A stretch of DNA of 64,000 nucleotides from an uncultured Pseudomonadota bacterium (GCA_963805995.1 CAWDWL010000007.1:544931-608930), one strand, 5' to 3'; positions 3,843 to 41,134 are shown, numbered from the stretch's first letter. Translations and numbers: made by a program. The notes: generated from the letters alone by a model not told the origin.

Positions 3843-3954
3843 TAGTGGTCGTTTTCTCGCGACCGCACCAAGGACAAGCTCTTCGATCGGGAGCGCACCA
3901 GGACGCGTTCTGATCACGCGCTTGACCACCTGCGGTATCGTTGTGGCAGCAGTC

Positions 3955-5649
3955 TCAGGAGCGCAGCACCGCGCCCGGCAGCGCGCCGGTGAATTTGGCG
4001 TTCTCATACACCGGCACGCCATTGACGATGGTGTGCTCAATGCCGCGCGCCTCCATCACCAGACGCTGGGCGCCGCCCGGGAGGTCATTGCGCAACCGGG
4101 CGCGATCGGCCGAACCGACCGTATCATAATCGAAGATCGCCAGATCGGCGGCGTAACCGGTGGCCACTCTTCCCCGCCCCTTGACCCCGAAGTAGTCCGC
4201 CGGTTCCGCGGTGAGCCGCTTCACCCCCTGCTCCAGGGACATGACGCCGGCCTCGCGGACCCAGTTCCCCAGCAGGTAGGTGCAGTAACCGACGTCGCAG
4301 ATCTGATCGACATGGGCCCCGCCGTCGGACAGCGCGATCATCGTTCGCGGATCGTTGACCAGGCGGCCGACGCGCTCGCGGTTATTGTTGAGCAGCGCCA
4401 CGACGAATCTCATTTCCAGGTGGTCTTCCAGCGCCAGGTCGAGCAGCAGGTCGAGACCGTCGGCGGCGCCGCGCTCCCGGGCGATATCGGCCAAGGTCTT
4501 CCCCTCCAGATGTTTGAGCGCCGGGTTGAATGCCTGCAGCACTTCGATGCGTTCAAGATGTTGGCTGAAGATGATGTGGTGCAGGCCCGACTTCTCACAT
4601 TCGTTGCGAATCTGCTGCCGGAATCCCGGATCGGTGTAATGCCCTTTCTGCACTTCGAAGGGACGGTTGAAGATCGACTGCTGGATGCATGGAAAGGTTA
4701 TGAACATCAGCGGGGCGCGCAGGTTTAACTCGATAAACAGCGGGCGGCAGCTAATCTGCGGGATTCCGCCGCGCGCGATCAGCGGTTCGAACCGGGCCAG
4801 CGTCCGCATCGCCCCTTCCGGCATGTCGTCACGGTCGAACAGCGAGATCCAACTAACGGGACGCCGGGATTGGTCAAGCAGAAAGTCCAGGATATCGTAC
4901 TCCCGCTCTGACATGTCGGAGGGTTTGTCGGCCAGGTTCAACTGGATCACGCCCTTGCCGAGGTCGCGCAGCACATGGCAGTAAGCCTTAAGCTCGTCGC
5001 GGCTGGCCAGGCGGCACGCCAGCGGCTTGCCTTCATATCCGATATCGATATTTGACACGCTGGTGGAAATGCCGAGCGCCCCGGCTACCATCGCGGCGCG
5101 CAACGCCTCGCTGATTTGATCCGTCTCCTGCGCGGTAGCCGCCCGGTCCAGTGAATCCCGGCCCATCGCCCAATGCCTGAAGGGGGTCAACGGTGCGAAG
5201 AATCCCAGGTTGATCGCCGACCCGCGCCGGGCGGCTGCGTCCATGTAGCTGGGGAAGGTGTCCCAATCCCAGGTCAGACCGGCTTTGAGTACCTCGAACG
5301 GAATCGCTTCGAGGTTGGTCAGGTCGGAGGCGGTCACCTCGCGATCCGCCGGCTTGCACGGTGCGACGCCGACACCGCAGTTGCCCAGCACGACGCTGGT
5401 AACCCCGTGCCACGAAGAACTGGTAATCTGGGGGTCCCAGCAGATCTGGGCGTCGTAATGCGTATGCGGGTCGATGAACCCCGGCGCCACGATCAGATCG
5501 GTGGCGTCGATCACCTTGCGGGCCGGTTCCGCGATGCGTTTGCCGATTTCCGCGATCTTGCCTGCAACGATGGCCACGTCGGCCTGATAGCGCGACGCGC
5601 CGGTTCCGTCCACGATCGTCCCACCCCGGATAAGCAGATCGTAAGCCAT
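3955..5649 (-). CDS. N-acyl-D-amino-acid deacylase (D-aminoacylase), amidohydrolase superfamily
   Basis: The N-terminus MAYDLLIRGGTIVDGTGASRYQADVAIVAGKI...PGFIDPHTHYD is the hallmark of D-aminoacylases. I moved the start to the internal ATG at 5649, which is preceded by GGAGAAACC. The ORF-track N-extension (to 5712) has no RBS. Confidence 0.85.
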   Translation of the reverse strand: MAYDLLIRGGTIVDGTGASRYQADVAIVAGKIAEIGKRIAEPARKVIDATDLIVAPGFIDPHTHYDAQICWDPQITSSSWHGVTSVVLGNCGVGVAPCKPADREVTASDLTNLEAIPFEVLKAGLTWDWDTFPSYMDAAARRGSAINLGFFAPLTPFRHWAMGRDSLDRAATAQETDQISEALRAAMVAGALGISTSVSNIDIGYEGKPLACRLASRDELKAYCHVLRDLGKGVIQLNLADKPSDMSEREYDILDFLLDQSRRPVSWISLFDRDDMPEGAMRTLARFEPLIARGGIPQISCRPLFIELNLRAPLMFITFPCIQQSIFNRPFEVQKGHYTDPGFRQQIRNECEKSGLHHIIFSQHLERIEVLQAFNPALKHLEGKTLADIARERGAADGLDLLLDLALEDHLEMRFVVALLNNNRERVGRLVNDPRTMIALSDGGAHVDQICDVGYCTYLLGNWVREAGVMSLEQGVKRLTAEPADYFGVKGRGRVATGYAADLAIFDYDTVGSADRARLRNDLPGGAQRLVMEARGIEHTIVNGVPVYENAKFTGALPGAVLRS

Positions 5650-5867
5650 AGCGGTTTCTCCTGCAGGATGCCGGTTTCGCGGCCCTGTTGCTGACGCCCG
5701 CTGGTTCGTCACCAGCGATTCAGAGCATTATTCTCCTCGCTCACCATTGTACAGAGGAAATGCGTCGACTCTTGACTGGACGGCGGACCTGCTGAGAAAG
5801 CTAAAACAAATTGTGAGCGTCAACGTTGTGAGTCGCCAAAGACGCTGAAGATGCACATCCGGCGAAC

Positions 5868-6341
5868 ATGAAGGTCATCAAGCTGATTGTTGCGTTGGCG
5901 GTCATCGCGCTGATTATTGCGCAATTTGTTCCGCTGGATCGGAGTAATCCTCCCGTTACCGCCGACTTAAGCGCCCCGCCCGAAGTCAAGGTGACCCTGA
6001 GGCGCGCCTGCTACGACTGCCATTCCAACGAGACCCGGTGGCCGTGGTACACGAATATCGCGCCGGCTTCGTGGCTGATGGCATACGATGTTCGTGAAGG
6101 ACGCCACAGTCTGAACTATTCGAACTGGGGTAAGCTCGACGAAGGGGTGCGCGTGCGACTGTTGCGGCTGACCCAGCGCGACGTTAACAACCGCAGGATG
6201 CCGCCCTGGTTTTACGTCCATCCGCTTCATCCGGAGGCGCGCCTTTCCGCCGGCGACCGCTCCCGCATTTCTGATTGGGCCGGGAGCGCGCGCGCCGATC
6301 TCATGCGGAAATTCGAAGCCGAAAACCCCGGCCATCGATAG
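5868..6341 (+). CDS. Heme-binding domain protein (Haem_bd, PF14376-like); membrane-anchored, CxxCH motif
   Basis: An N-terminal TM helix, then RACYDCHSNETRWPWYTNIAPASWLMAYDVREGRHSLNYSNWG, which matches the conserved haem-binding domain family signature. Confidence 0.75.
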   Translation: MKVIKLIVALAVIALIIAQFVPLDRSNPPVTADLSAPPEVKVTLRRACYDCHSNETRWPWYTNIAPASWLMAYDVREGRHSLNYSNWGKLDEGVRVRLLRLTQRDVNNRRMPPWFYVHPLHPEARLSAGDRSRISDWAGSARADLMRKFEAENPGHR

Positions 6342-6479
6342 CCTTGCGCTATCGAGCCATAGCAAGAAGGTCCCTTGCGGTTTTCGCCGCCTGGTCTATT
6401 TTGGAGCCGCGTCCGTGCCCGGCTAAGCGTCGTGAGATGAAAGCGCGTGCGCGGATCTCTACTGGAGGAGCTGATCAAG

Positions 6480-6935
6480 ATGGCCAAAAGCAGGGAGCAA
6501 TTGATCGACGACATGGTCGATCGCGAGGCGATCCGCGACCTCGCGGTGCGCTATTGCGATCACATTTGGAAGGACGAAGTCGATGCCGTGGGAGAGTTGT
6601 TTACCGGCGACGGCGCGTTCATCAACAATCCCCCGCCCGGGATCACCCTGGCGGCCCAGGAAACCCATGGCAGGAAAGCCATCGTCGATATGCTCGCGGC
6701 GGGGCTCAAGGGCATGAAGCCGCGGCCCTACATCCACAATCACGCCATCCGGCTTCAGGGCAACGGGCGCGCCACCGGCACGGTGTACGTGGAGTTGCGT
6801 TCGCCGGCGGTCAACTGGGAATGGATCGGGACCGGCTATTACGATGACGTTTACGAAAAAGTCGACGGGGAGTGGAAGTTCAAGTCGCGCAAGATCAACC
6901 TGATGAGGTTCGCACCCCCGCAGGCATCAAAATGA
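6480..6935 (+). CDS. SnoaL-like / NTF2-like fold protein
   Basis: About 150 aa with the NTF2-like pattern (DREAIRDLAVRYCDHIW...GDGAF..., W near the C-terminus). I chose the ATG at 6480, which has GGAGGAG 9 nt upstream. Confidence 0.65.
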   Translation: MAKSREQLIDDMVDREAIRDLAVRYCDHIWKDEVDAVGELFTGDGAFINNPPPGITLAAQETHGRKAIVDMLAAGLKGMKPRPYIHNHAIRLQGNGRATGTVYVELRSPAVNWEWIGTGYYDDVYEKVDGEWKFKSRKINLMRFAPPQASK

Positions 6936-7055
6936 CCTCGCGCGGACGCTTTGCCGTGAGCCCGCGATGGGGGCTATGGTCGCTGTGCCTGGTTAAGGGC
7001 AGCGTCGGATTCGAGAACGGTTGGTTGAATCCTTCCGCGTAAAGGAGAAATCGCG

Positions 7056-8159
7056 ATGGAAAACCTGCGCGTCATATCGGCCGATTCACACGTAGTGGAA
7101 CCAGCCAACTTATGGGAAACCCGGCTGGACAAAAACTTCCGTGATCAGGCGCCCAAGGTGGTCCGCACGGAAAAGGGGCTGTGGGTGATCACCGCTCCAG
7201 GAGGAATTTCGTTTCCCGCCGCCGCGATGTTCGCGGCCGGCAAGCGGGGCCAGGAATTGCGCGAGCACATGGGCAAGGGCTACGAAGCCAGCCGTCCCAG
7301 CGGATGGGATCCAAGCGAGCGGGCCAAGGACCAGGATATCGACGGCGTGTTGGCCGAGGTGCTGTACACCAGCAATGGCCTGCCGCTGTTCGGCCTCGAA
7401 GACGCCGAGCTCCAGTATGCCTGCTTCCGCGTCTTTAATGATTGGCTGGCGGAATACTGCGCGGCCAATCCCAAGCGCCTGATGGGCGTGGCCCTGATTT
7501 CCCTGCGCGACATCGCCACCGGGATTGCGGAGTTGGAGCGCTGCGCCAAAACGGGTTTGCGGGGTGCGATGATTTCCAACCATCCCCTTCAACCCTACGA
7601 CAGTCCGGTTTACAATCCGTTCTGGCAAGCCGCTTCCGAACTCGGAATGCCGATCTCGCTGCATATCATTACCAGCACCAAGAAGCAGAGCCTCGGCTCG
7701 TTTTCCGGCTCCAACACCACCACGCTGCAGATCGAGTACGTGTTCGAGACCCAATGCTGCCTGGCGCTGATGCTGATGGGCGGGGTGCTCGAGCGCTATC
7801 CGAACCTGCGGCTGGTTTCGACCGAGAACGATATTGGCTGGATGCCCTACTTCCTGCATCGCCTCGACCACAACTACGAGCTGGGCGCCGCGGCCCGCAA
7901 TCTACCGCCGCTTAAGCCCAGCGAATACGCCCGCCGTCAGCTATGGGCGACCTTCCAGGACGATCCCTGCGGCGTCGCGCTGTATAAGATGTTTGGGGAA
8001 GACAACTTTATGTGGGCGTCGGACTTTCCGCATTCCGATTCCACCTGGCCCCATTCGCAGGCCGTGATCGCGCAAAACTTCGCGTCGATCCCGCAGCCGG
8101 TGGTCCAGAAAATCGTCGCCGACAACGCTGCGCGGCTATACGGAATCGAGTTGAACTGA
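7056..8159 (+). CDS. Amidohydrolase-2 family metal-dependent hydrolase (ACMSD/PF04909-like)
   Basis: The N-terminal ISADSHVVEP motif and HxH...D pattern typical of the amidohydrolase_2 TIM-barrel family. AAAGGAGAAA RBS 7 nt upstream of the ATG. Confidence 0.85.
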   Translation: MENLRVISADSHVVEPANLWETRLDKNFRDQAPKVVRTEKGLWVITAPGGISFPAAAMFAAGKRGQELREHMGKGYEASRPSGWDPSERAKDQDIDGVLAEVLYTSNGLPLFGLEDAELQYACFRVFNDWLAEYCAANPKRLMGVALISLRDIATGIAELERCAKTGLRGAMISNHPLQPYDSPVYNPFWQAASELGMPISLHIITSTKKQSLGSFSGSNTTTLQIEYVFETQCCLALMLMGGVLERYPNLRLVSTENDIGWMPYFLHRLDHNYELGAAARNLPPLKPSEYARRQLWATFQDDPCGVALYKMFGEDNFMWASDFPHSDSTWPHSQAVIAQNFASIPQPVVQKIVADNAARLYGIELN

Positions 8160-8162
8160 CGC

Positions 8163-8207
8163 TGCGCGCCGGACCTCGAAGGCGTTTGCATCGGCGGTCC
8201 GGCGCGG
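8163..8207 (+). terminator. GC-rich hairpin (11-bp perfect stem CGCGCCGGACC / GGTCCGGCGCG, about 20-nt loop) between the amidohydrolase and LLM genes; possible terminator or intercistronic structure
   Basis: A perfect inverted repeat read directly from the sequence. There is no T-tract after it, which is common in high-GC genomes, so its function is uncertain. Confidence 0.25.
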
Positions 8208-8252
8208 TATATCTCGGTCCAGCTATTTGACGATGCACTGGAGGTGCCACGC

Positions 8253-9269
8253 ATGGCCGGCAGGATACAGTTCGGGCTCAACCTGGAATTCCGCAACCCG
8301 CAGCAGTTCTACCGCGACCCGGCCAAACTGTACGAAGATATCATCGAGCACACGGTGTGGGCCGAGGGCCTGGGCTACGACTACATCTTCCTGACCGAGC
8401 ATCATTTCACCCACGACGACTGGGCGCCGTCGCCGCTGATGCTGCTGAGCGCGATTGCCGCGCGCACCAAGCGCGTGCGCCTGAGCACCAGCATCATGCT
8501 GCTGCCCTTCTACCATCCGGTGCGGCTGGCTGAGGACGGCGCCGTGCTCGATATCATTTCGGGGGGCCGCTATGAGCTTGCCGCCGGCCTGGGCTATCGG
8601 CCCGAGGAGTTCGGCGGCTACGGCATGCAGTTGCTTTCACGCAGCCGGCGCGCCGACGAGATGCTGGAGATCATCCGCCGCCTGTGGGACGGCGAGACGG
8701 TCAACTTCAAGGGCAAGTTCTTCCAGGTTGACAACGTGCGCCTGAGCCCGCGGCCGGTGCAGCAGCCGCGGCCGCCGATCATGGTCGGCGGATACGCGCC
8801 CAACGCGGTCAAACGCGCCGCCCGGATGGGCGACGGATTGGTCGGTGTCACGCCGCAAACCTATGAGATCTATGTCGAAGAACTGCGCCGGCTGGGCAAG
8901 GATCCCGCTAAAGCCAGGGTAATCGGCGGCGGCGGAGCCTGGGTGTTCTGCTCCAACGAGCCCGAGCGGATGTGGAACGAGATGGCCCCCTACTGCATGC
9001 ATTCGGCCAACACCTACGCCAAGTGGATGGAGACCTGGAACACCCCGCCGGCCTATACCGCGGCGCGCGATATCGAGGAGTTCAGGAACAGCCGGCAACT
9101 GCGGATTGTCTCGCCGGAAAAGATGGTCGAATACGTGCGCAAGCAGGTGACGCTGAACCATTGCGACACCTGGTTCTTCATGGGCAACGAAGGCGGCGCC
9201 CCGATGTCGATCATGCGCGAGCATATCGAGCTGTTCGCGACCAAGGTGATGCCGCACTTTCAGCAGTAG
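8253..9269 (+). CDS. LLM-class flavin-dependent oxidoreductase (luciferase-like monooxygenase)
   Basis: The N-terminus FGLNLEF...EGLGYDYIFLTEHHF is the LLM family signature. ATG at 8253 with GGAGGTG 7 nt upstream. Confidence 0.85.
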   Translation: MAGRIQFGLNLEFRNPQQFYRDPAKLYEDIIEHTVWAEGLGYDYIFLTEHHFTHDDWAPSPLMLLSAIAARTKRVRLSTSIMLLPFYHPVRLAEDGAVLDIISGGRYELAAGLGYRPEEFGGYGMQLLSRSRRADEMLEIIRRLWDGETVNFKGKFFQVDNVRLSPRPVQQPRPPIMVGGYAPNAVKRAARMGDGLVGVTPQTYEIYVEELRRLGKDPAKARVIGGGGAWVFCSNEPERMWNEMAPYCMHSANTYAKWMETWNTPPAYTAARDIEEFRNSRQLRIVSPEKMVEYVRKQVTLNHCDTWFFMGNEGGAPMSIMREHIELFATKVMPHFQQ

Positions 9270-9297
9270 GTCAGGCGAAGGTCTCGGAGAGCTGATG

Positions 9298-9573
9298 CTA
9301 TCGATCCTCTCGCGTGTGCCAGAGCCGCAACACGTATAGCGTCGATTTCCGTATCTCGTAACGGAATTCATAGCGCCCAACCACAATACGGCGCACCTCG
9401 CGTGGTTCGAACTCTTCGAGCCTCTCATCGATGCGCGGATGCTGCGGGAGCCCGCCTGCCGCGGCGGTCAGAGACTGCACGATGCGCGCAGCAGCCGGCC
9501 TATTGACCGGGGCGAGGAACTCATAAAGCCGTGCCAGATCGGACAGCGCCTTGCACGTCCACTTCAACTCCAT
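9298..9573 (-). CDS. parE: Type II toxin, ParE/RelE family
   Basis: A 91-aa protein with the ParE-like C-terminus (YVLRLWHTREDR) and the conserved RelE/ParE fold pattern. It is downstream of a small RHH antitoxin ORF. Confidence 0.75.
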   Translation of the reverse strand: MELKWTCKALSDLARLYEFLAPVNRPAAARIVQSLTAAAGGLPQHPRIDERLEEFEPREVRRIVVGRYEFRYEIRKSTLYVLRLWHTREDR

Positions 9574-9639
9574 CAGCGCGGGGTCGGTAACGGCTTATCT
9601 GTATCGAGGCTATCTGCCCAGGCCTGCACGGCTTGGTGG

Positions 9640-9834
9640 TCAATGATTCTGCCGGCATCGACATCGGCAAGCGCCTCCAGTGTCAAACCGTCTGCGCTCT
9701 TCTTCCTGTTCAATCCAGGCGGACAAGGCTTGTTTGATTATCCAACCCCGCGAGCGTTCCAGTCGCGCGGCGAGTTGGTCGACTTTTTTGGCAAGCGGCA
9801 GCGGGACATGCGCGGTAAGTACCTTGGTATTCAT
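9640..9834 (-). CDS. Type II antitoxin, ribbon-helix-helix (ParD/CopG-like)
   Basis: 65 aa starting at the ATG at 9834; the ORF track's TTG start at 9858 is less likely. MNTKVLTAHVPLPLAKKVDQLAARLERSRGWIIKQALSAWIEQEE is a typical RHH antitoxin. It lies immediately upstream of parE on the same strand. Confidence 0.6.
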   Translation of the reverse strand: MNTKVLTAHVPLPLAKKVDQLAARLERSRGWIIKQALSAWIEQEEERRRFDTGGACRCRCRQNH

Positions 9835-9936
9835 CTGATCAATGTGAATCGTTCTCAATCATAGTGATTGAATTTGATTATATCCAATGTGAGATGATTT
9901 GGTGCGACGCCAGGCAGTGGCATTCGGCCCAAGCTC

Positions 9937-10230
9937 TCACTTCGGCAACGCTTCCGCGATCAGCACTCCCGACGCCGTCAATTCCGCGACCTTTTCCTTC
10001 GAGTAGCCCAGATAGCGGCTCAAAACCGCCTCGTTGTGCTCGCCCAGGAAGGCGGTGCGGGCGCGGATTTTCACGCTCGCGTCGGAGACGCGAAAAGGCG
10101 CGCGGGGGAATTGAATCGGACCGATGCCCGGTTGATCGACCTCCTGCATCAGAGCGCGATGCTTCATTTGCGGATGGTTTATGTCGGCGAAAAGAAGCAA
10201 GAAGCAAGCAGACCTCGCCGAGGCCTTCAA
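9937..10230 (-). pseudogene. Displaced 3'-terminal fragment (about 95 codons) of a CaiB/BaiF CoA-transferase gene; remnant of the integration site
   Basis: The translation (..QMKHRALMQEVDQPGIGPIQFPRAPFRVSDASVKIRARTAFLGEHNEAVLSRYLGYSKEKVAELTASGVLIAEALPK) is near-identical to the C-terminus of the intact CoA-transferase at 12871..14097. The two share a 195-nt identical core and are divergent on both sides of it. Confidence 0.75.
9954..10148. repeat. Direct repeat (left copy, 195 bp, 100% identical) of the CoA-transferase 3' region; putative attachment-site core
   Basis: Nucleotide identity with 12888..13082 read directly. The shared 65 codons appear in ORFs 9864..10292 and 12837..13115. Confidence 0.85.
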
Positions 10231-10481
10231 TACGTCTAGAAGTGCCGGGTGATTTTACGGGTCTCCACTTTGGCAATTGCGCTTCCTTTTGACTAATAAC
10301 CAACTTAAGAGCAAAATAGATGACAGCCCTCCGAAGTCAGAAGTCAATGTCGTCGAATGCACGACATCTGAGGGATCTGAAATTCGGTTTTCGGCTAGCT
10401 CGGAGCGGTCAAGCTGTTAGAGATCTTTGATTTATAGAAACTCTCATTGGCAGGCAAAAACGATTACTAGGAACAAGCTTC

Positions 10482-12576
10482 ATGGAAGCCACACCCACGC
10501 AAATTATTAACTATTTTAGCGGTTTCAAACAAAATTTAGTGCCGCTCTTTCAGCGTCCCTATACTTGGGCCGAACGTCAGTGGCGAACGTTGTGGGAGGA
10601 CATTTGTAGCTTTTACGGGCACGAGGAGAACGCCGGCAAAGCCACGCATTTCATGGGCGCTGTTGTTACCATGCCCGCCCGAAGCGTGCCAGTTGGTGTT
10701 TCAAAGTTCCTGGTCATAGATGGGCAGCAGCGGCTTACAACGATAGCGTTATTGCTGTGCGCCCTCCGCGATAACTTGTCCTCCACCGATGTCGTTCCGA
10801 AACGACGGATACAAGACTCATTACTTGACAAACGATGGATTCGAAGGATCTGATTTCTTTAAACTGTTGCCGACGCAAGGTGATCGGTTGGCCTATTCTC
10901 AATTGATTGAAAACTCGACCTCGACAATTCCGGATTCTCAATTCAAAAAGGCATACGATTTCTTTCGTCGTCGGCTCAGAAGCGAGGATGACGAAGGTAA
11001 TCCGCTTGATCCGAAGCGAATCCTAGAAATCATCGAGACTCGGTTGATGGTAGTAATGATCAACCTGAGCGACAATGACGATCCTTATCTGATTTTCGAA
11101 AGTCTCAACTTTAAAGGTTCACCTTTAGAACAGTCAGACCTCGTAAGGAATTATTTTCTAATGCGATTTCCCGTGACCGAGCAGCAGGGCGTTTATGACG
11201 ACCTATGGTTGCCGATGCAGAATCGACTCGGTCCGAGCTTGACGGAGTTTATGCGCCATTTTCTCGGTTCAGAAGGTGAGGAGGTTCGCAAAGGCGACGT
11301 ATACGCTGCTATAAAGCGCCTCACAGCAGATTCGGAACCGCCGTCGGTTCGCCTCCTCATGAGCCGAATGGAGCAATTGTCCACGTTCTACAGTCGAATT
11401 ACTACAACGGCGCCTGAACCTGACGAGAACATTAGCGAGTTTTTTGTCCGATTTCGTCGGCTTGACTTTGGAACCGCATACCCTCTTCTACTTTCGCTGT
11501 ACGAGGACTTCGTGGATGGTCAATTCGGAACGGAGGAATTCGTCGCTAGCCTAAGGATTCTCGATTCCTACATAATTAGGCGCATGGTGGTCGGAGTTCC
11601 ATCCAACTCCCTCGCCGGTATATTTATTTCATTATGCAAGAGTAAACCGATAACCGAGAGCCCGTCTGCCTGGCTCGCGACGGCTCTTAGCCAGGAGACA
11701 AAAAATCGTCGCTGGCCGATCGAAAAGGAGTTTTTTGACAACTGGGTGAATGGGCCGATATACGGTAGCCGAGCTTGTCAGGTAATTCTGGAATGTCTCG
11801 AGAAGCAGTGCGGACATCATGAGGCTGCCTCTCTCAGTGAGGCAAGTGTCGAGCACGTCCTTCCTCAGACTCTAACTCCCGAATGGGAGGAAGCACTTGG
11901 AGATAGGGCAGCCATTACCCATGACGAATGGCTTCACACCATAGGCAATCTTACACTAACCGGATACAACCCCGAACTCAGCAACAAGCCTTACTCAGAA
12001 AAAAGAAACATTCTTGCAATGAGCCATTTTGAGCTCAATAGGTTTTTCGGAAACTGTGAAGTTTGGGATGATTCAGAAATAAAAAAACGCGCAGAGTCCC
12101 TTTTCATAACGGCGCAACAGCTCTGGCAGCGTCCCTCCGAAGTGCTCGAGGAAGAGCCAACGGTACAGCGGTCCACAGCGGCGAATTTCCACGCCGATTG
12201 CATTCGATTAGCTCAGAAGCATCTGGGCGTCGTGTTATCAAAAGTTTCACAGACGCGCTATGAGGCAGGTGATAAAGAGACCCGACTCGTCTGCGCGGTC
12301 TCAGCAGAACATAACGAGAATGGAGGTATCCCCTACTTTTGGTTTGGCTTGCGTCGCAGTCAAGTGGAATTCTTGGAACAAGTGCCTTCCGCGTGGCTCT
12401 GCTTGGGTTGCGGATCGCCTGAACAGACCTTGCTAGTGCCTATTTTAGTCATAAGCCGCGCTCGTTTCCCAGATGAGTGTATCGATGGGAGAGAATCACC
12501 ATTATTGGCACGTTGTAGTCCAAAGAAGAAATGCGAAGTTCGTATTGCGTCTTCTGGGAGGCATGGATGGGCCTGA
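10482..12576 (+). CDS. GmrSD-family type IV (modification-dependent) restriction endonuclease, DUF262 (ParB-like NTPase) + DUF1524 (HNH-like) domains; the frame is interrupted near 10808-10825, so either a pseudogene or a sequencing indel
   Basis: ORF 10482..10853 carries the DUF262 motifs QRPYTW and DGQQRLTT. ORF 10789..12576, in the +1 frame, continues with the DUF262 YLxN...KLLPT region and later the DUF1524 EHVLPQ motif. The frames overlap, consistent with a single-base indel. Local GC is about 45% against about 65% in the flanks. Confidence 0.65.
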
Positions 12577-12870
12577 TTTGCAGGAGTTCCTAATTCCGGA
12601 AAGTGGCGCCTCTGCGACCGTTTCCCATTCCTAATCTGTTGACCTTGATAAGCGGATGTTTGGTCTCCAAAGTCTCTTCGGGGTGGGGCGCATGTAAGGC
12701 CCTGCCCTCAATAATTGAGCTGTATGTTGGGCTTTTAACTGTGGAAGAGTCGGCGGGGGACCGATGACGCCGCGCGGTTAGCAATCCGATTTCGAACTCC
12801 CGGATACATGCCGGGTATTTCGCGTTTATATTAAATTTGCGCGAGTTTTTTGAGCGTTCTCCACAGGGGA

Positions 12871-14097
12871 TTACTTCGGGAGTGGTCCCGCGATCAGCAC
12901 TCCCGACGCCGTCAATTCCGCGACCTTTTCCTTCGAGTAGCCCAGATAGCGGCTCAAAACCGCCTCGTTGTGCTCGCCCAGGAAGGCGGTGCGGGCGCGG
13001 ATTTTCACGCTCGCGTCGGAGACGCGAAAAGGCGCGCGGGGGAATTGAATCGGACCGATGCCCGGTTGATCGACCTCCTGCATCACGCCGCGGAACTTCA
13101 TCTGCGGATGGTTGACCGCCTGGCCGATGTCGAGCACCGGGGCGCTCAGGATGCGATGCTGCTCCAGGATCCGCAGCGGTTCGTCGCGGCTTTCGAAAGA
13201 TAGCAGCCAGTCTTCGATTATTCGCACCAGCTCGAAGCGGTTTTTGGCCCGCTCGGTAGGCGGATTAAACCGTGGATCGCTCAGCAATTCGGGTTTGCCG
13301 ATCGCCTGGGCAAAAGTTTCCCACTGATGGATCAGGGCGGTGATGATCATGTAGCCGTCGCGCGCTTTGAAGATTCCGCACGGCGCGATGCTGCTCAGAT
13401 GCGAGCCGTTACGCATCGGATTGTCCGCGCCATCGCTGATGACATAGCGGGCCAGCGCCAGGTCGTGAAGATTGAACAGGCTCTCCACCAAGGAAATATC
13501 GAGGTAGCGTCCGGCGCCGGTCTGCGCGCGATTGAAGAGCGCCGCGCATACCGCACTGAATGCATGGATGCCGGCGTTGGCATCCGCGATTGATGCACCG
13601 ATATAGGTCGGCACGCCGTCGGGGTCGCCGGTCAGATGTGTCAGCCCGCTCATCGCCACTGCCATCGTATCGTTGCCGTTGCGATGGCTGAACGGACCGT
13701 CCTGCCCGAAAGCGGAGATCGAACACATGATTAGCCGCGGGTTAAGCTTGCGCAGGTCTTCGTAACCCAGGCCGCGTCGTTTGAGCACGCCGGGGCTGTA
13801 GTTTTCGATCAACACGTCGGCCTGGGCGGCCAATTCCCGCGCGACGCGCTTGCCCGCGTCCTTTTCGATGTCGATGCAGACGCTCTCCTTGCCGCGGTTT
13901 TCGAGCATGAAGATGGCGCTCTGACCGGCTTTGAGCGGAGTATAGCCGCGCAAATGGTCGCCGTGCGGACCGAACTCGACTTTGACCACTTCCGCGCCCA
14001 TGTCGGTCATCATGCGCGAGGCCGTGGGGCCGGCGAAGAATTGGCCGAATTCAAGCACCTTCACGCCAGCTAGTAGTCCGTCATTGGATTGATCCAT
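12871..14097 (-). CDS. CoA-transferase, family III (CaiB/BaiF)
   Basis: A 408-aa protein with a CaiB/BaiF-type N-terminus (LAGVKVLEFGQFFAGPTASRMMTDMGAEVVKVE) and the conserved family III domain order. ATG at 14097 with GAGGTA 5 nt upstream. Confidence 0.9.
   Translation of the reverse strand: MDQSNDGLLAGVKVLEFGQFFAGPTASRMMTDMGAEVVKVEFGPHGDHLRGYTPLKAGQSAIFMLENRGKESVCIDIEKDAGKRVARELAAQADVLIENYSPGVLKRRGLGYEDLRKLNPRLIMCSISAFGQDGPFSHRNGNDTMAVAMSGLTHLTGDPDGVPTYIGASIADANAGIHAFSAVCAALFNRAQTGAGRYLDISLVESLFNLHDLALARYVISDGADNPMRNGSHLSSIAPCGIFKARDGYMIITALIHQWETFAQAIGKPELLSDPRFNPPTERAKNRFELVRIIEDWLLSFESRDEPLRILEQHRILSAPVLDIGQAVNHPQMKFRGVMQEVDQPGIGPIQFPRAPFRVSDASVKIRARTAFLGEHNEAVLSRYLGYSKEKVAELTASGVLIAGPLPK
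12888..13082. repeat. Direct repeat (right copy, 195 bp) forming the 3' part of the intact CoA-transferase gene
   Basis: Identical to 9954..10148. Confidence 0.85.
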
Positions 14098-14300
14098 TGA
14101 ATACCTCGCCCGACCACTTGCGCAGCCTTATGCGGATTTGGCAGCGGCATGTTAGCGCCGCTCCGTGCGATTCGCCAAATGCCTTCACTTTTTGGACAAA
14201 TCAGGCGGCGAACCCCTTTGGCCGGAATTGTGAAAACATGCTAGTGATTCCAAACGGAGACACGCATCACGCGGTCTCACCTAAGGAGGAAACCGCCGCC

Positions 14301-15437
14301 ATGAAATTTGGGATTTTCTTTGAATTGTCGGTGCCGCGGCCGTGGACCCATGATTCCGAACGAATCGTTTACGAAAACGCGCTGGAGCAGGCCGCAGTCG
14401 CTGACGAAGTGGGCTTCGACTATGCCTGGGCGGTGGAGCATCACTTCCTCGAGGAATATTCGCATTGTTCCGCACCCGAGTTGTTCTTGACCGCGATCGC
14501 GATGCGGACCAAGCGAATCCGCGTAGGCCATGGGATCATCGTCTGCGTCCCCCAATACACCCATCCGATCAAGGTCGCCGAGCGCACCGCGGTGTTGGAT
14601 ATCCTGTCGGGTGGACGGCTTGAAGTCGGCACCGGCCGATCCGCCACCTGGTGCGAGTTGGGCGGCTTTCGCGCCAATCCGGATGAAACCAAAAAGACCT
14701 GGGATGAATATGTTCACTGCCTGCCCAACATGTGGACCCAGGAGCGCTACTCCTACGAGGGTCGTTCGTGGTCGATGCCGGAGCGCGCGATTCTGCCCAA
14801 GCCCTATCAAAAGCCGCATCCGCCGATGTGGGTCGCGGTTACCAGTCCGGGCACCGAAATCGATGCCGCCCAGCGCGGCATGGGCGCGCTGGGGATCAGC
14901 TACGATCCGCTGCCGGTGCAGGAAAAGAAGCTGCTCGAATACCGGCGCCATATCAAAAATTGCGAGCCGGTTGGCAAAATCATCAACAATCACTGCGCTG
15001 CCTTGACCTTCCTGTACTGCAACGAAGACGACAAGATCGGGATCAAAAAAGGCACCGATATGTTCATGCATTTCGGTTTGCTGGCCAATCAGATCGTGAT
15101 GTGCCGCGAAGCCTACCCGACCAAATCCTACCCTTCGGCCGGCCTGCTGCCGGCGGTGCGCAGCCAGGCCCAGGGTCCAAGCGACACCGGCGGAGTCCCG
15201 CAAGGCGTCGCGATCGGCGATCCCGAGCGCATTTTAAAGACGCTCAAGACCTGGGAGTCGGCCGGCTTTGATTCGATCAACTTCCTGACCAACGCGGTGG
15301 AAATGCTGCCGCAGCAGGAAGTGCTCAACTCGCTGCGGATGTTCGGGAAACATATAATCCCGCATTTCAAAAACCATCGGCCCACGATTCATCCGGTTTC
15401 GGGCAATGGGCTTGCAGCCGCCGCGGGGGGACGCTGA
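14301..15437 (+). CDS. LLM-class flavin-dependent oxidoreductase
   Basis: I chose the internal ATG at 14301, which has AAGGAGG 7 nt upstream (MKFGIFFELSVPRPW...AWAVEHHF). The 68-codon N-extension in the ORF track lacks an RBS and runs through the divergent promoter region. Confidence 0.85.
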   Translation: MKFGIFFELSVPRPWTHDSERIVYENALEQAAVADEVGFDYAWAVEHHFLEEYSHCSAPELFLTAIAMRTKRIRVGHGIIVCVPQYTHPIKVAERTAVLDILSGGRLEVGTGRSATWCELGGFRANPDETKKTWDEYVHCLPNMWTQERYSYEGRSWSMPERAILPKPYQKPHPPMWVAVTSPGTEIDAAQRGMGALGISYDPLPVQEKKLLEYRRHIKNCEPVGKIINNHCAALTFLYCNEDDKIGIKKGTDMFMHFGLLANQIVMCREAYPTKSYPSAGLLPAVRSQAQGPSDTGGVPQGVAIGDPERILKTLKTWESAGFDSINFLTNAVEMLPQQEVLNSLRMFGKHIIPHFKNHRPTIHPVSGNGLAAAAGGR

Positions 15438-16192
15438 TGCCGAGGTTTGGAACGCTTGATGTTAACGAACTGGCTTCCAGCGTGCCGGAGATCGACGGCT
15501 TCGGCACGCAGCGCGAGAGCCTTAAGAATGCGCAACTGCTGAACGTCTCTTACGAGATCTCCGCCAACGGTTCCGACGCGCTGCTGCCGCCGGCGATGAA
15601 TCCGAGCATCCCGCCGTACCTTCAGTGCACGGTGATGGTCTGTCCGGAAAGTCCGTGGGGTCCGTTCACGACCGGCGAGTTACGCCTGGTCGGACGCGCC
15701 GGTTTTCGCCCCCGCGCCTTCACGTTCAAGACCTTCGTGGACAATCCGAAAGCCGCCAGCGAACTGGCGCGGCGTTGGGGATTTCCGGTAGCGCCGGGAA
15801 AAACGCAGATCCATCCGCGCCACGAGCGGATCGTGGTGGAGATCCACGACGACAAGGGCCGGCGCATGCTGGAAGCGGAGATGATCGATCGCGAAGGCAT
15901 TGGCGGCAGCGATATCCAGTACGTCGCCAGCATGCACCTGGCTCATAGCCGCGGTGATGGCAAGCTGGTGATGGTGCAGGTCGACCCCGACTACGTGTTC
16001 ACCAAGGCCGAGCGCGGCTTGTCGCACTTCATCTACCTCGATCAGGAGGCTTGGGGAGCCAAAGGACTGATCACGCCCACCAACCCGATAATTTCAACTT
16101 ATGCGCAGTGCGAAGTGATACTGCCGCAGATTCGCTTCATTTGCGATCCGAACCGCAACGCGCTGGAAAGCACGGTTCGCGTTAACGCGTAA
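15437..16192 (+). CDS. Acetoacetate decarboxylase (ADC)-like family protein (tentative)
   Basis: About 250 aa. Its start codon overlaps the LLM stop (TGATG), indicating translational coupling. The size and secondary-structure-like pattern are compatible with the ADC-like fold. Assigned by recollection of family features only. Confidence 0.5.
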   Translation: MPRFGTLDVNELASSVPEIDGFGTQRESLKNAQLLNVSYEISANGSDALLPPAMNPSIPPYLQCTVMVCPESPWGPFTTGELRLVGRAGFRPRAFTFKTFVDNPKAASELARRWGFPVAPGKTQIHPRHERIVVEIHDDKGRRMLEAEMIDREGIGGSDIQYVASMHLAHSRGDGKLVMVQVDPDYVFTKAERGLSHFIYLDQEAWGAKGLITPTNPIISTYAQCEVILPQIRFICDPNRNALESTVRVNA

Positions 16193-16195
16193 CGG

Positions 16196-16710
16196 TTTCT
16201 ACGCTGTCCCCTCTCCCACATTTAATTGCGGGAGAGGGGACAGTTCTCCCAAAGCGAAAATAGAATATGTCCAGAGCACAAACGCATTGGTGCGGAGGCA
16301 ATTTCTATTTCCCCTCCTTATCCTGAGACTGTCGACAAACTCCTAAAACCTACCTCGGCGTGCGATTTGCGCCAGCAAGTCGCGTGACGGGCGAGGGTGC
16401 AGGCCCTGCCAGGAGGTGTCACGCAGGCAGAATCTCGCAGTGCGCCAATGCGTTTAGCCTACTTGAGGTGTATCAGAACCTTCACCCTCGCCCTCTCCCA
16501 CAACTGAATGTGGGCGAGGGAACAGAACCAAGCCGCCATTGCGCGACCGCGCTATCAAGCATCGTGGCTTTGCCCCTTAGTCGTTTATCGACAGTCTCTG
16601 TCCTCGCCCTAAAGCGAAAATAGTTTTGCGCCTTGAGTGCACGAACACATTGGCGCAGAGGCCATTTCTGTTCCCTCTCCTTATCCTAGGAGAGGGCGAG
16701 GGAGAGGTTA
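16196..16710. repeat. Repeat-rich intergenic block containing MITE-like element A plus nested short palindromes (CCCCTCTCCC / GGGAGAGGGG hairpins, duplicated AAAGCGAAAATAG...CGCATTGG...TTCCCYTCCTTATCCT subunits)
   Basis: Several inverted and tandem sub-repeats read directly. ORF 16360..16623 inside it is repeat-derived and not considered coding. Confidence 0.6.
16325..16600. mobile_element. MITE-like element, family A, copy 1 (about 275 bp) with 16-bp terminal inverted repeats GAGACTGTCGACAAAC ... GTTTATCGACAGTCTC
   Basis: Terminal inverted repeats read directly. About 93% identical, in inverted orientation, to 23357..23690. No transposase is encoded. Confidence 0.55.
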
Positions 16711-17170
16711 CACGCTCCGACCTTGATCCATGTTTCGCCCTCAGCCGAGGCATTTCGCCCCAGATTTTTTTCGCGCTTCAGGACGAAGTGCTTTGATCGG
16801 AAAATTTCAATATTTTGGTTAGGGTTGGAAGAGGGCGAGGAAGAGTTCGCACGCCCCGATATTCGCAACCGCCACGCGCGGTGAATTTCAAGGCCTCGAC
16901 CAGTGAGCTTTTCGATCCCAGCAAGGACAACAAAGGAAATAAGCGCAACTCCCATACGCGAGAAAAGTCTATTTCTCGTGGGCGGTGTCCCGCTGAAAGG
17001 ATCGGGATAGCGTCGCCGGTGCAGTGGACGTGGCCGGAATGGCAGGCGATGAGGTGGCACCGCAAGGCGCCCAGGTCTTCAACGAATTGCTCAAAAAGTA
17101 GGGTCCGCCCAGGAGAGTCCGGCCCGATCGTGTGGTGCTACATAAAGGCAAGGTCTAATTGTCTAATTCT

Positions 17171-18157
17171 ATGAACGACACAACGCCACCGCCCCCATCG
17201 CCTCAATACGAAACCTTGCGGCCGGCGACGGCCATCGCATCGCATCGAGTACTCACCGATAAGGTTGCCGAATACTGCAAGGCGCAGGCGGCCATTACGG
17301 ACACCGCGCGGAAATTCCCGGGATTCGTCGGCACCGAAGTCTTAAGCCCGATTCCCGGTCTTCAAGATGAGTGGGTCGCCATTTTCCGCCTCGAATCCAA
17401 TGAGGCGATGAAACGCTGGCTCGCGGCGCCCGAACGCACCAGGCTGGCCGAACGAATCGAGCAGTACCTCACCGAACCGTCGCACCTGTTGATCCTCGCC
17501 AGTGACGAGCGCACCGAAGCGCCAGTCGCGATGGTCTTCACCCATCGTGTCCCCGAGGGCAGGGTGCCGGATTACCTCGCCTGGAGGCGCAAGGCGATTG
17601 CCGCTCAAGCACACGTTCCCGGCTATCTGGCGACTGAATTTTTCGAACCTCGGGCCAAGGGTCAGGAGGAGTGGGTCGACATCGTACGCTACGATTCCGT
17701 GGAGCATCTGGACGCCTGGATGGAGTCGCAAGAACGGGCCGGTCTCCTGGAGGAACTCAAGCAGATAGTCGAGAGTATGCACTCACATCGAGTAACCGGA
17801 CTGGAAGGATGGTTCGCCGTCAATCGCGGACCCGGCGCGCCGGCCGTTGCGCCGCCGCCGTGGAAACAAGCATTCTCGGTGCTGCTCGCGCTGTATCCCA
17901 CGGTGATGCTGCTTGGCGTGGCCACCAATCCCCTGATGAACGGACTGAGTCTTTCGCTCCAAATGCTGATCGGGAATACACTCTCAGTCGCCCTGTTGAC
18001 CTGGCTAATCATGCCCCGCGTTTCCCGATGGTTGAGTTTCTGGCTCGACCTCCCGGCCGGTGTTCCGTCTTCCGATAAATGGAGGCGGGAAGCGCTCGGC
18101 GTCGGCACCGTCCTGGCACTACTTGCAGCGTTCGTGGGGGTATTTGGGCTGCTATGA
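17171..18157 (+). CDS. Membrane protein with two tandem ABM (antibiotic-biosynthesis-monooxygenase / Dabb-like) domains and C-terminal transmembrane helices
   Basis: Two repeated segments of about 100 aa (..FVGTEVLSP...EWVAIFRLESNEAMKRWL.. and ..GYLATEFFEP...EWVDIVRYDSVEHLDAWM..) followed by 3 predicted TM helices. The ATG at 17171 is preferred over the track's TTG at 17159. Confidence 0.65.
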   Translation: MNDTTPPPPSPQYETLRPATAIASHRVLTDKVAEYCKAQAAITDTARKFPGFVGTEVLSPIPGLQDEWVAIFRLESNEAMKRWLAAPERTRLAERIEQYLTEPSHLLILASDERTEAPVAMVFTHRVPEGRVPDYLAWRRKAIAAQAHVPGYLATEFFEPRAKGQEEWVDIVRYDSVEHLDAWMESQERAGLLEELKQIVESMHSHRVTGLEGWFAVNRGPGAPAVAPPPWKQAFSVLLALYPTVMLLGVATNPLMNGLSLSLQMLIGNTLSVALLTWLIMPRVSRWLSFWLDLPAGVPSSDKWRREALGVGTVLALLAAFVGVFGLL

Positions 18158-18198
18158 TTCTTGCTGTTTGTGGCCTTGGCGGGTGATACGGTTTTCCT

Positions 18199-19518
18199 TC
18201 AGGGCTGGTTTCCGGCCAGACGCGGTCCGATAAACGGTATCTTGCCGATTGCCGCCCGGATTGCGGACTTGATTGCGTGTCCGATTCGATGCAGCAGGAG
18301 TTCGAGTTTGCCCCACGCGATCCGGAACAGGCCGCCGCGATCAATCCCTCTTTGCGTCTCAATCGGCACGCTCAGCAGGGTGCGATCGTCCTCATGGACG
18401 GTGAGACTTCCGACTTTGGTGCCCATCGGGACCGGGGCGACCAGGTAGTTGACGTCCAGGCCTCCGGTGAGTTTGATCTTCTTTTCATCGCCCTTGGGCA
18501 AAGTGATCGTGACCGGTCCGGGCGGAGCCAGCGCGACGATGGAATCCACTCCTTCGTAAACCGGCAGCGAGGCCGGAACCAGCGGGCGCCAATCCGGCGT
18601 AACGTTGACGAAGGAGCGGAACGCCCATGCCAACAGCTTTTCGGTTTCCGTCCGGCGCTTCTCGGCATTGGGCGCGCCCATCAATGCGGAAACCAGACGC
18701 ATATTGTCGGCGTGAGCGGTTGCGACCAGATGAAACCCGGCTTCATCGACGTGGCCGGTCTTCATTCCGTCAACCCGCGCATCGTAAAGCAGCAGGGTGT
18801 TCCAGTTGCGCTGGGTGATCTGATGGAAGGTAAATTCCTTCGCTGAGGTGTACTCCAGGGAATTGGGAAACTGTTTCATCACCAGGGTTGCCAACTTTAC
18901 CATGTCGGACGCCGTGGTGTATTGGTCCGGTTCGGGCAGGCCGTCGGGACTGGCAAAACGGGTCTCGTTCAGGCCCAGGCGATGACAGTAGTCGTTCATC
19001 ATCACCACGAAGCCTTCTTCGCTGCCACCCAAATATTCGGCCAGGGCCATCGCCGCGTCATTGCCCGATGACACCATCAAACCGTAGAGCAGCTGTTTGA
19101 CCGGGACCTGCTGGCCGACCTCTAGAAACATCTTCGACACCGTCTGGTCCACGGACAGCCGCCACGCTTTCTCGCTGATGTTCACCGACGTATCGAGCGT
19201 CAGCTTGCTGTTCTTGAGCGCTTCCAAGGTAATGTAGAAGGTCATTATCTTGGCCAGGCTCGCGGGCTGGATGCGCAGGTGCTCGTTGTACGCATAGAGC
19301 ACCTCGCCGGAGTGGAACTCGGTCAGCATCGCCGCCCGCGCGTCGAGCGCAAACGGCGCCGGATTATTGCCGAGAACTCGAATCTGGTTAAGTGGCTCGA
19401 TTGGAGGCGGCGCCGACGCCATGGCGTGGTGCCTGGCGGCACTCGCGACCGAAAAGGTCCCGAGTAAAATCGCCCCCATAACCCAAATCAACTTCCACCG
19501 CTTGCATGCCCAAGGCAT
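18199..19518 (-). CDS. D-alanyl-D-alanine carboxypeptidase (serine-type, peptidase S11, PBP5/6-like)
   Basis: A signal peptide, then SLAKIMT (the S11 SxxK active-site motif) and the SGN and KTG motifs. GAGGGG RBS upstream of the ATG at 19518. Confidence 0.85.
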   Translation of the reverse strand: MPWACKRWKLIWVMGAILLGTFSVASAARHHAMASAPPPIEPLNQIRVLGNNPAPFALDARAAMLTEFHSGEVLYAYNEHLRIQPASLAKIMTFYITLEALKNSKLTLDTSVNISEKAWRLSVDQTVSKMFLEVGQQVPVKQLLYGLMVSSGNDAAMALAEYLGGSEEGFVVMMNDYCHRLGLNETRFASPDGLPEPDQYTTASDMVKLATLVMKQFPNSLEYTSAKEFTFHQITQRNWNTLLLYDARVDGMKTGHVDEAGFHLVATAHADNMRLVSALMGAPNAEKRRTETEKLLAWAFRSFVNVTPDWRPLVPASLPVYEGVDSIVALAPPGPVTITLPKGDEKKIKLTGGLDVNYLVAPVPMGTKVGSLTVHEDDRTLLSVPIETQRGIDRGGLFRIAWGKLELLLHRIGHAIKSAIRAAIGKIPFIGPRLAGNQP

Positions 19519-19726
19519 AGAGCACCGCCCCTCACGTCCCGCTTAACTAGACATTAGAACCCCGATGACGCGGCGGCAAGCGGCGTGGCAAACACTTGGT
19601 AACAAGCCGGGAATTCCACTGCGTCCACCGGTGCGCCAGTCGCCAAATCGGGTCCACTAGGGATGGTTCGAACTCAACCGAGTCCGACCCCGTAACCCTG
19701 CGGGATCAGCTAAGCACATTGGGACC

Positions 19727-19745
19727 GCTGGCACGAAGGATGCTT
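19727..19745 (+). promoter_or_regulatory. Putative sigma-54 (RpoN) promoter: TGGCACG-aagg-ATGCT (consensus TGGCACG-N4-TTGCW)
   Basis: The GG-N10-GC spacing is exact, with a single mismatch in the -12 element. It lies about 115 nt upstream of ORF 19862. A sigma-54 activator gene is 1.6 kb downstream on the same strand. Confidence 0.45.
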
Positions 19746-19861
19746 CTCAGAAGCCATGGAAATTGGAATGAAGCAAAAGGGCCCCATAGGGCGCAGAAAT
19801 ATGACGCGACTGTGGCCGATTAGGGAGCAATTCCCCGTTTCAATGCCACAAAGGGGATGAA

Positions 19862-20251
19862 ATGGCTATGGAGAGTCCCTCCAGGCAATTTGAAGACAGC
19901 AGCCAGACTTGGGCTGCGGGCAGCAATCTTTTGGCCCCGGATTGTCTGCTGCCGGTTCAATACAATGATCTGATACGAAAGCGCCACGTGCTTGAGGGGG
20001 AAGTTAAGCTGATGATGGCGGTTTTGAAGGACGCAATCCGCGCCTACATCAGGGACATGGACGGACGCACCCCGCAGGCACGGCGCAATTTCCAGGAAAC
20101 TTATCGATGGGTCCATGCCGCAGATCAGGACGGGGTCTTTGCCTACGACAATGTCTGTGACACCTTGGGACTGGAACCCGGCCTGCTGCGCCGATGGCTC
20201 AAATCGCTACACGACGTCGAATTGGCTCTACCGCGCGCCACAGGACGTTGA
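19862..20251 (+). CDS. Hypothetical protein (129 aa), unknown function
   Basis: An ATG with AGGGGA 5 nt upstream. The codon usage matches its neighbours and it sits downstream of the putative sigma-54 promoter. I recognise no family. Confidence 0.5.
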   Translation: MAMESPSRQFEDSSQTWAAGSNLLAPDCLLPVQYNDLIRKRHVLEGEVKLMMAVLKDAIRAYIRDMDGRTPQARRNFQETYRWVHAADQDGVFAYDNVCDTLGLEPGLLRRWLKSLHDVELALPRATGR

Positions 20252-20344
20252 ACCGCTGCTCGCTCCCACCAAGCTCGGCCGATGCGGTTGGCCATCAATC
20301 CGCGCGCTTGGTGGAGTGCGTAAAACGGTGTCTGCGTGGACCGT

Positions 20345-21370: not shown

Positions 21371-21464
21371 GCGCCAAAAGACCGGTATCAGCGCACAACG
21401 CCCGGGGGGAGACGCATCACGCCGCCCTTTTTTAGCGCTGGATTTTGGCGTAAGATCGCCGGAT

Positions 21465-23690: not shown

Positions 23691-23704
23691 GGGAGAGGGG
23701 CCAA

Positions 23705-41125: not shown

Positions 41126-41134
41126 TACAAAGCG

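Follow-up and report, generated by a model that had tools for sequence, protein, structure and literature searches.

A GmrSD-type defence islet at the 3' end of a CoA-transferase gene in an uncultured Binataceae bacterium bears a Campbell-type integration footprint

In a stretch of 64,000 nucleotides from an uncultured bacterium (GCA_963805995.1 CAWDWL010000007.1:544931-608930, here called the window), a single restriction gene of the GmrSD family lies between two direct copies of the 3' end of a CoA-transferase gene. The host is a soil bacterium of the Binataceae, and the inserted segment is a chromosomal, horizontally acquired islet. We found that it is a real and strain-variable defence islet with a clean Campbell-type footprint, although ordinary in kind. 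As judged from related contigs, both repeat copies consist of the resident allele of the target gene, and the incoming sequence has been kept only at the island-proximal edges, over 28 nt and 17 nt. On balance, we favour by a modest degree the view that the islet entered by homologous (RecA-type) recombination and not by means of an integrase.

Comparison of the window with itself revealed an exact direct repeat of 198 bp (9954..10151 and 12888..13085). An earlier note on this DNA had described a perfect repeat of 195 bp; its identity was confirmed, and the true length is 3 bp more. No third copy of the 198-bp core was found within the 64-kb window. The homology continues in register over 9920..10179 and 12854..13113, with 92% identity. 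On the gene-upstream side of the core (10149..10179), 24/31 bases match between the two repeat surrounds, on the stop-codon side (9937..9953 versus 12871..12887) the match is 11/17, and beyond both arms it is at the random level (20/81). The gene homology of the left copy ends sharply at 10179/10180. The divergent flanks and reading frames of the two copies, MKHRALMQ and MKFRGVMQ before the core and AEALPK and AGPLPK after it, are as they had been described.

The islet adds 2,934 bp, one repeat copy included. The segment between the repeats has the GmrSD-family (DUF262-DUF1524) type IV restriction gene as its sole gene, flanked by about 300 nt of non-coding DNA on the left and 236 nt on the right. 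The island (10180..12853) has a G+C content of 49%, against 61% in the whole window; the contrast has the direction reported previously, but the earlier values of 45% and 65% were too extreme. The two-repeat arrangement is also present in the contigs L001 and L058, which stem from two further samples; L045, from a third, has the right-hand half of it. L001 is 99.4% identical to window positions 2871..19660, with 104 differing positions and an insertion sequence (IS). Because the arrangement recurs in contigs of other samples, the repeat structure is not an assembly artefact.

A comparison with island-free relatives had been set as a check, and we found a single copy of the core at all five empty sites. 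These were identified in L002 (85% nucleotide identity to the window), L046 and L047 (93-96%), L060 (about 89% in the gene) and L059, a 48.5-kb contig of the same species with flanks of 98.2-98.7% identity. The order of genes at the empty site is CoA-transferase, RHH antitoxin, ParE and a luciferase-like (LLM) gene, and the gene tail is single-copy. The short-read contig L044 (1,375 nt) seemingly shows an empty site as well; it ends 4 nt past the stop codon, is possibly an artefact of repeat resolution, and was not used.

The tails were aligned base by base between the window and the empty sites L002, L046 and L059, and in these alignments the assignment of native and foreign arms is unambiguous. 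Native are the upstream arm of the right copy (from 13086 on, ...MKFRGVMQ) and, on the far side of the islet, the arm 9937..9953 (AEALPK-TGA) with the spacer 9902..9936. Foreign are the two island-proximal arms, which we call P (10152..10179, MKHRALMQ) and P' (12871..12887, AGPLPK-TAA). The P arm has the sequence AAGCATCGCGCTCTGATGCAG and encodes NHPQMKHRALMQ, where the native gene encodes NHPQMKFRGVMQ; the latter version was seen in every native relative compared. The left copy comprises only the last 81 codons of the CoA-transferase gene, including NHPQMKHRALMQ, and ends with AEALPK, so that the displaced tail amounts to 243 bp. The topology of an integrated circle, as proposed before, is therefore borne out by the empty sites: the intact gene ends with island-borne sequence and the original 3' end is displaced.

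The core is identical at 198/198 positions to the single copy of the island-free same-species contig L059. Compared with L002, L046, L060 and L003, its divergence is not consistently above or below that of the rest of the gene (for L002, 84.3% identity in the core and 86.4% in the rest), and sister species differ from it at 10-12 positions. Because the core equals the L059 copy and is no more diverged than the rest of the gene, both copies hold the resident allele. The alternative that the core had been imported together with the island was rejected, since its divergence from these four contigs is gene-like and it equals the island-free same-species allele.

Moreover, the edges of the identity vary among strains. 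The P' arm was found in three states, namely GGACCACTC in the window, L001 and L058, a mosaic GAACCGTTG in L048, and a native-like GAAGCGTTG in L045 and L050; every state is followed by TAA and by identical island sequence. In the P arm of L001 and L058, conversion has introduced the native base at a single position, giving KHRAVMQ, so that two P states exist among the carriers. L058 has in addition 2 substitutions inside one core copy. Because P, P' and the core edges vary among strains, the locus evidently undergoes gene conversion, or allelic recombination that extends to the heterology.

Campbell-type or ends-in integration is known from the single crossover of suicide plasmids and, with gap repair, from yeast. 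It duplicates the shared segment, the chromosomal allele is copied into both copies, and donor sequence is kept at the insert-proximal edges; such inserts are lost by recombination between the repeats. The islet shares with these cases the duplicated segment, the resident allele in both copies and the donor sequence restricted to the insert-proximal edges. It differs in being natural, whereas the known cases are laboratory or plasmid phenomena.

In the reading that we favour, a circular or circularly permuted piece of foreign DNA would have brought along the final 81 codons of the CoA-transferase gene in a diverged form. One recombination with the last 81 codons of the resident gene, of the Campbell or 'ends-in' type, would have duplicated the shared segment, kept the gene intact with island-borne final codons and displaced the native tail; the circular intermediate in this scheme is a presumed one. 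Gap repair or heteroduplex correction may then have copied the resident allele into both repeat copies. The 198-bp repeats would also permit a precise RecA-dependent loss of the islet, and the island-free same-species strain is consistent with this. L059 may have lost the islet in this way or may have lacked it from the start, two histories that its sequence cannot separate.

The two routes of entry lead to different expectations. A homologous route predicts that both copies hold resident sequence, that donor sequence is confined to the edges next to the insert, and that the edges of identity vary. A site-specific exchange at a fixed point predicts copies that are part native and part element, and both copies could be native over 198 bp only if the element had carried that very allele. 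An element already carrying the exact allele is unlikely, because the arms are 23-35% diverged and the sister species differ at 10-12 core positions. Resident sequence in both copies, with donor sequence confined to the insert-proximal edges, is what we found. Two variants were rejected. A one-sided, homology-facilitated illegitimate recombination of a linear fragment would have made the left copy wholly native, but its upstream arm is foreign. The arrangement of L048 and L050, which is considered further below, does not qualify as the donor, since the 59 nt at 10180..10240 are unmatched after the island there and GmrSD is truncated in those contigs.

Several observations weigh against entry by homologous recombination. 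A recombinase may have acted in trans from elsewhere, the part of the genome examined being 64 kb. Later gene conversion or allelic recombination may have erased an allele difference after an integrase event. The donor, be it a CoA-transferase gene or a circle with KHRALMQ...AGPLPK, was not found among 134 homologues and the JGI metagenomes. The comparison contigs differ among themselves by many single-base indels, and single-base features such as the frameshifts described below or arm variants (for instance an extra C in L048) may be errors in the consensus. Finally, integrases classically leave just such a footprint, an insertion into a gene 3' end that supplies an element-borne end and displaces a pseudo-end, as for e14 in icd with its 163-bp icd' (PMC6379469).

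The rival that has to be taken most seriously is a site-specific integrative element, whose attP would contain the CoA-transferase 3' end, whose tyrosine or serine recombinase has since been deleted or acts in trans, and whose 198-bp identity arose by later conversion. We regard it as possible, at clearly lower odds than homologous entry. Direct repeats stand at both ends and a single copy at the empty sites of relatives, the foreign arms indicate that the incoming DNA had its own version of the gene end, and conversion, which occurs at the locus, could have homogenised the core afterwards. The topology is that of e14 or phage 21 in icd, with the 163-bp displaced icd' (PMC6379469), and of the islands that target the 3' end of trmE (PMC8409611). 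With e14 and phage 21 of Escherichia coli, the islet has in common the insertion into a 3' end, the slightly different end supplied by the element and the gene left intact; in both e14 and the islet the original end is displaced to the far side, over 163 bp and 243 bp, respectively (PMC6379469). Those elements are, however, prophage-sized and have an integrase, whereas the islet has no recombinase and a single gene as cargo; its central 198 bp are native in both copies and the edges of identity are strain-variable. SGI1, at the 3' end of trmE, and the islands that target dusA likewise are small cargo islands at the end of a housekeeping gene, with direct repeats and helper-dependent transfer (PMC8409611). 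These islands retain an integrase and an excisionase of their own, and their attachment repeats are short; neither feature was found in the islet. The attachment repeats of SGI1 are about 18 bp long.

The search for mobility genes speaks against this rival as well. No integrase, recombinase or transposase domain of Pfam was detected in the island or the other open reading frames (ORFs) of the window (57 ORFs tested across 64 kb), in agreement with what had been stated before. Likewise, no recombinase was found in the 6 kb of additional genes of the remodelled 9-kb allele of L048 and L050, and neither the island, this allele nor the 57 ORFs contain an integrase remnant. The island has no terminal inverted repeats. 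Since no Rfam match was found in 9000..24500, there is no tRNA-type target. The module was absent from the other genomes and contexts searched, that is, viral contigs, phages, plasmids, JGI metagenomes and other GmrSD loci: a 22-mer specific to the left part of the island gave 0 matches in viral contigs, the island gave 0 matches to phages and one 119-nt DUF262 match only to plasmids, KHRAL-type sequence occurred in 0/134 CoA-transferase homologues, a degenerate P-arm pattern gave 0 matches in the JGI metagenomes, and no flanking repeats were seen around the GmrSD relatives in L041 and L043 or in L048. A conservative exchange at a fixed point alone, moreover, cannot render both copies native over 198 bp, and the identity boundaries are not fixed among the carriers, P' occurring in three states and P in two. 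It had been suggested that the islet arose by site-specific recombination and may represent a decayed integrative element. Neither suggestion was upheld, given that there is no integrase remnant, the unit was found nowhere else in the sources searched, both copies are native at 198/198 positions and the edges are mosaic.

An extension of the homologous route seems doubtful to us, namely that the islet is an integrase-free, self-propagating unit in which the captured gene fragment serves as a RecA-dependent homing arm and as the whole integration machinery. Recombination between the repeats would free a circle of 2.9 kb with GmrSD and a hybrid P-core-P' tail. After transfer, e.g. by transformation or vesicles, this circle would re-insert into the same gene of related Binataceae, and with every cycle host sequence would replace the middle of the arm anew, so that only the edges stay foreign. 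To our knowledge, natural defence islets with a gene fragment as the sole 'integration module' have not been described as a class. The minimal mobile elements of Neisseria and similar integrase-less cassettes carry varied cargo at one spot between conserved genes, and presumably move by homologous recombination in the flanks. Different cargo at one spot without mobility genes is also what we observed (window, L048, L003 and the empty sites); the elements of Neisseria, however, are swapped by double crossover without duplication of a flanking gene.

Not only the edges but the whole locus is variable. The spot between the CoA-transferase and RHH/ParE genes is empty in 5 contigs and holds the islet in 4, a remodelled 9-kb allele in L048 and L050 (L049 shows the GmrSD part only) and an unrelated 8.6-kb insert in L003. 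The hotspot that had been suspected here is thus borne out as a strain-variable locus with these four states. The flanks of L048 and L050 are 98% identical to those of the window, the junction on the right is shared, and the 3' half of GmrSD has 97.4% identity. Both contigs lack the left repeat (window 9902..10238), and the place of the GmrSD 5' half is taken by 6 kb with other genes (Usp, ion channel, Na/H exchanger). The island stretch 10239..10425 is 86.6% identical to this remodelled allele. L003 represents a related species of Binataceae (83% identity in the CoA-transferase protein); its unrelated block (11312..19609) encodes a Ser/Thr protein kinase, AAA_16 ATPases, a TPR protein and an ECF sigma factor, and there is no ParDE pair.

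The remodelled allele raises the question whether the islet is a remnant of a larger island, possibly the L048/L050-like one of 9 kb, from which deletions left 2.7 kb and removed the mobility genes. We judge this to be improbable. L048 and L050 do share the right junction and the GmrSD 3' half (97.4%) and carry 6 kb more genes, and the locus is being remodelled. However, GmrSD is truncated in them and intact in L001 and L058, which makes the L048/L050 allele the derived one for that gene; its extra 6 kb are free of a recombinase, and its left part, at only 86.6% identity, suggests import from another lineage and not ancestry. An ancient local tandem duplication of the gene 3' end with a later insertion between the copies, or else an assembly artefact, is highly improbable: the copies are directly oriented and close together, but the island-proximal arms are non-native and hence not copied from the resident gene, island-free strains of the same and of sister species have a single copy, the two-copy arrangement occurs in contigs of two other samples and its right half in a third, and the compositional contrast is real, so that both observations named beforehand as refuting an integration, a tandem duplication without compositional difference and an artefact, are contradicted.

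The content of IS elements is also unequal among near-identical strains. An IS of the DDE_Tnp_1 type in L001 (3280..4356), at window position ~19657, is absent from the window; L048 has a DDE_Tnp_1_4 IS (11110..12486) between GmrSD and the CoA-transferase gene, and an IS110-family gene is located nearby in L050 (15253..16065).

The cargo belongs to a family of restriction proteins that has been described previously, including its layout of a ParB-like DUF262 domain with the motif DGQ(Q/H)R, a helical linker of about 200-400 residues and DUF1524, and whose members usually reside in defence islands and on mobile DNA (PMC4619093, PMC4437046, PMC8565348). The earlier note had proposed a GmrSD-like gene as the only cargo, and the Pfam domains GmrSD_N and GmrSD_C support this; its coordinates of 10482..12576, however, do not form one ORF, as the gene is frameshifted and its true stop lies at 12634. 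GmrSD_N (PF03235) is split, with profile positions 3-78 in the ORF 10482..10853 and 82-199 in the ORF 10789..12576, and the latter also contains GmrSD_C (PF07510, E 1e-23). The translation contains the stretch VIDGQQRLTT, with the DGQQR motif of the DUF262/GmrS domain, and a linker of about 200 amino acids connects the GmrS and GmrD domains. With the Eco94GmrSD/BrxU family, the cargo protein shares the N-terminal DUF262/GmrS domain with DGQQR, the helical linker and the C-terminal DUF1524/GmrD domain of the HNH type; it differs by an extra C-terminal region of about 150 residues and by the frame that is broken twice in the window. These C-terminal residues gave no family match, and no NCBIfam match was obtained for the protein. 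The best PADLOC matches were Orf5 (7e-175), HEC-06 and mREase_IV.

Two insertions of a single base compared with L001, at 10817 and 12455, break the frame, and both fall outside homopolymer runs. The gene is an intact single ORF of 716 amino acids in L001 and L058. The frameshifts of the window may be real inactivating mutations or else consensus errors, and unless they are such errors, the GmrSD of the window is probably inactive. By its family, the protein would be a modification-dependent type IV restriction enzyme with NTP-stimulated DNA cleavage, its activity and substrate being predicted from its relatives; an intact copy would be expected to cut the DNA of phages with modified bases and in this way to act against phages.

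Outside this locus, the nearest GmrSD proteins have 77-85% amino acid identity (68-86% nucleotide identity of the genes), and the similarity of their DNA to the island ends at the limits of the coding sequence. They are located in unrelated, defence-type neighbourhoods, as in L041 with HepT/MNT, Cas6, Cas3 and BrxT/A. Of three other loci measured, two (L041, L054) have GmrSD genes that are poor in G+C compared with their surroundings. In L054 (812..3211), a JGI metagenome contig, one relative with 85% amino acid identity over 303 residues adjoins a gene for a 799-residue Piwi-domain protein, similar to prokaryotic Argonautes.

The left non-coding part of the island, which includes the island-left sequence CTTCCTTTTGACTAATAACCAA, is not homologous to the DNA that flanks GmrSD genes elsewhere. 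Within it lie a sigma-70-like site upstream of GmrSD (10289..10317) and a minus-strand hairpin with a T-run (10226..10203), each a consensus match only; a promoter and terminator scan gave no more sites than shuffled sequence.

The target gene encodes a protein with a full-length CoA_transf_3 domain (PF02515, E 1e-109, profile 1-366 of 366). No substrate-specific equivalog was assigned to it, as all NCBIfam matches were far under their cut-offs, e.g. formyl-CoA transferase with 247 versus 442 bits. The protein of the window was also found on the ENA metagenome contig L001. Its orthologues in Binataceae have 83-99% identity, and the nearest named relatives are metagenome-assembled genomes of Candidatus Binataceae. 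Some related orthologues terminate with ...PLPK or ...PLP, e.g. P0125 and P0122, which suggests that the foreign gene fragment was derived from an orthologue of the Binataceae. The coordinates of the features are collected in Table 1.

Table 1. Features of the islet, its target gene and the adjoining genes (window coordinates).
Feature	Position	Strand	Remarks
ParE-family toxin gene, 91 aa, intact	9298..9573	-	PF05016, E 2e-15; native flank, outside the island; same place in L002, L046, L047, L059, L060
RHH (CopG/RelB3-type) antitoxin gene	9573..9858	-	RHH_1, E 2e-11; native flank; frameshifted, ORF 9640..9858
Native spacer	9902..9936	.	Follows the CoA-transferase stop in island-free genomes; collinear with L002, L046, L059; moves with the displaced 3' fragment
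Native downstream arm B'	9937..9953	-	Last 5 codons, AEALPK plus TGA; matches the gene ends of L002, L046, L059; unlike 12871..12887
Repeat copy 1 (198-bp core)	9954..10151	-	Within the displaced, promoterless 3' fragment of the CoA-transferase gene
Foreign upstream arm P	10152..10179	-	CoA-transferase-like coding sequence
Left non-coding part of the island	10180..10481	+	Between the P arm and the GmrSD start
GmrSD-family type IV restriction gene	10482..12634	+	DUF262/GmrS_N, DUF1524/GmrD_C and C-terminal extension of ~150 aa; broken by two 1-nt insertions
Right non-coding part of the island	12635..12870	.	Between the convergent GmrSD and CoA-transferase stops; absent from empty sites; same gene junction in L045, L048, L050
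Foreign downstream arm P'	12871..12887	-	Island-borne last codons AGPLPK plus TAA, now ending the intact gene; 11/17 versus the native arm
Repeat copy 2 (198-bp core)	12888..13085	-	Inside the intact CoA-transferase gene
Family III (CaiB/BaiF) CoA-transferase gene, intact, 408 aa	12871..14097	-	Native 5' part, core and island-borne last 5 codons, AGPLPK

Beside the left repeat, a ParDE pair had been noted. Genes of the RHH and ParE type are indeed present there, but the antitoxin gene is frameshifted. As determined by alignment and three-frame translation against L046, L059 and L048, the frame is lost after ...EQEEERRR through an extra base in the A-run 9685..9687, and the RelB3_C part is missing. 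The three carriers of the full-length island (window, L001 and L058) all have the extra base, and L046, L059 and L048 do not; L001 and L058 have a second indel in an A6/A7 run. The antitoxin is intact in L046, L047, L048 and L060, and in L059 it is broken by other single-base indels.

Further features were observed elsewhere in the window. Inverted repeats of about 250 nt (16355..16605 and 23357..23603), 6.8 kb apart and 92-97% complementary over three segments, bracket genes for an ABM-domain protein, a PBP5-type carboxypeptidase, an M15 peptidase and a sigma-54 activator; the pair may be an intergenic repeat or resemble a miniature inverted-repeat transposable element. Near it lies a 52-nt direct repeat (16273 and 16636), and the part of L046 that has been sequenced shows a match over about 100 nt. 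The region 46640..50644 comprises a SNF2/ResIII-type helicase gene (46640..48976), an ORF of 392 amino acids without Pfam match (48992..50170) and a convergent Fic/DOC ORF (50219..50644). The G+C content dips to 58-60% at 49-52 kb, at this helicase-Fic/DOC cluster, and the region may be a further acquired or defence-related patch. The genes at 40112..46481, for a MoxR-type AAA_3 ATPase, DUF58, BatA and VWA-domain proteins, form a Bat/aerotolerance-like operon and are apparently ordinary chromosomal content.

Single-gene defence islets without mobility genes are common, and their mode of movement is usually unexplained. Here, clean junctions together with island-free and remodelled alleles of the same species let the mechanism be read from the sequence: a foreign copy of the tail of a host gene would have been the entry point, and the distribution of native and foreign bases agrees with homologous recombination accompanied by gap repair. 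The islet is one well-resolved case of a known phenomenon and not a new system. If the case is general, short captured gene fragments could suffice to spread defence genes within a species without an integrase. For the Binatia, a soil lineage that has hardly been studied, the data would in addition record how a type IV restriction gene was gained, remodelled and then decayed.

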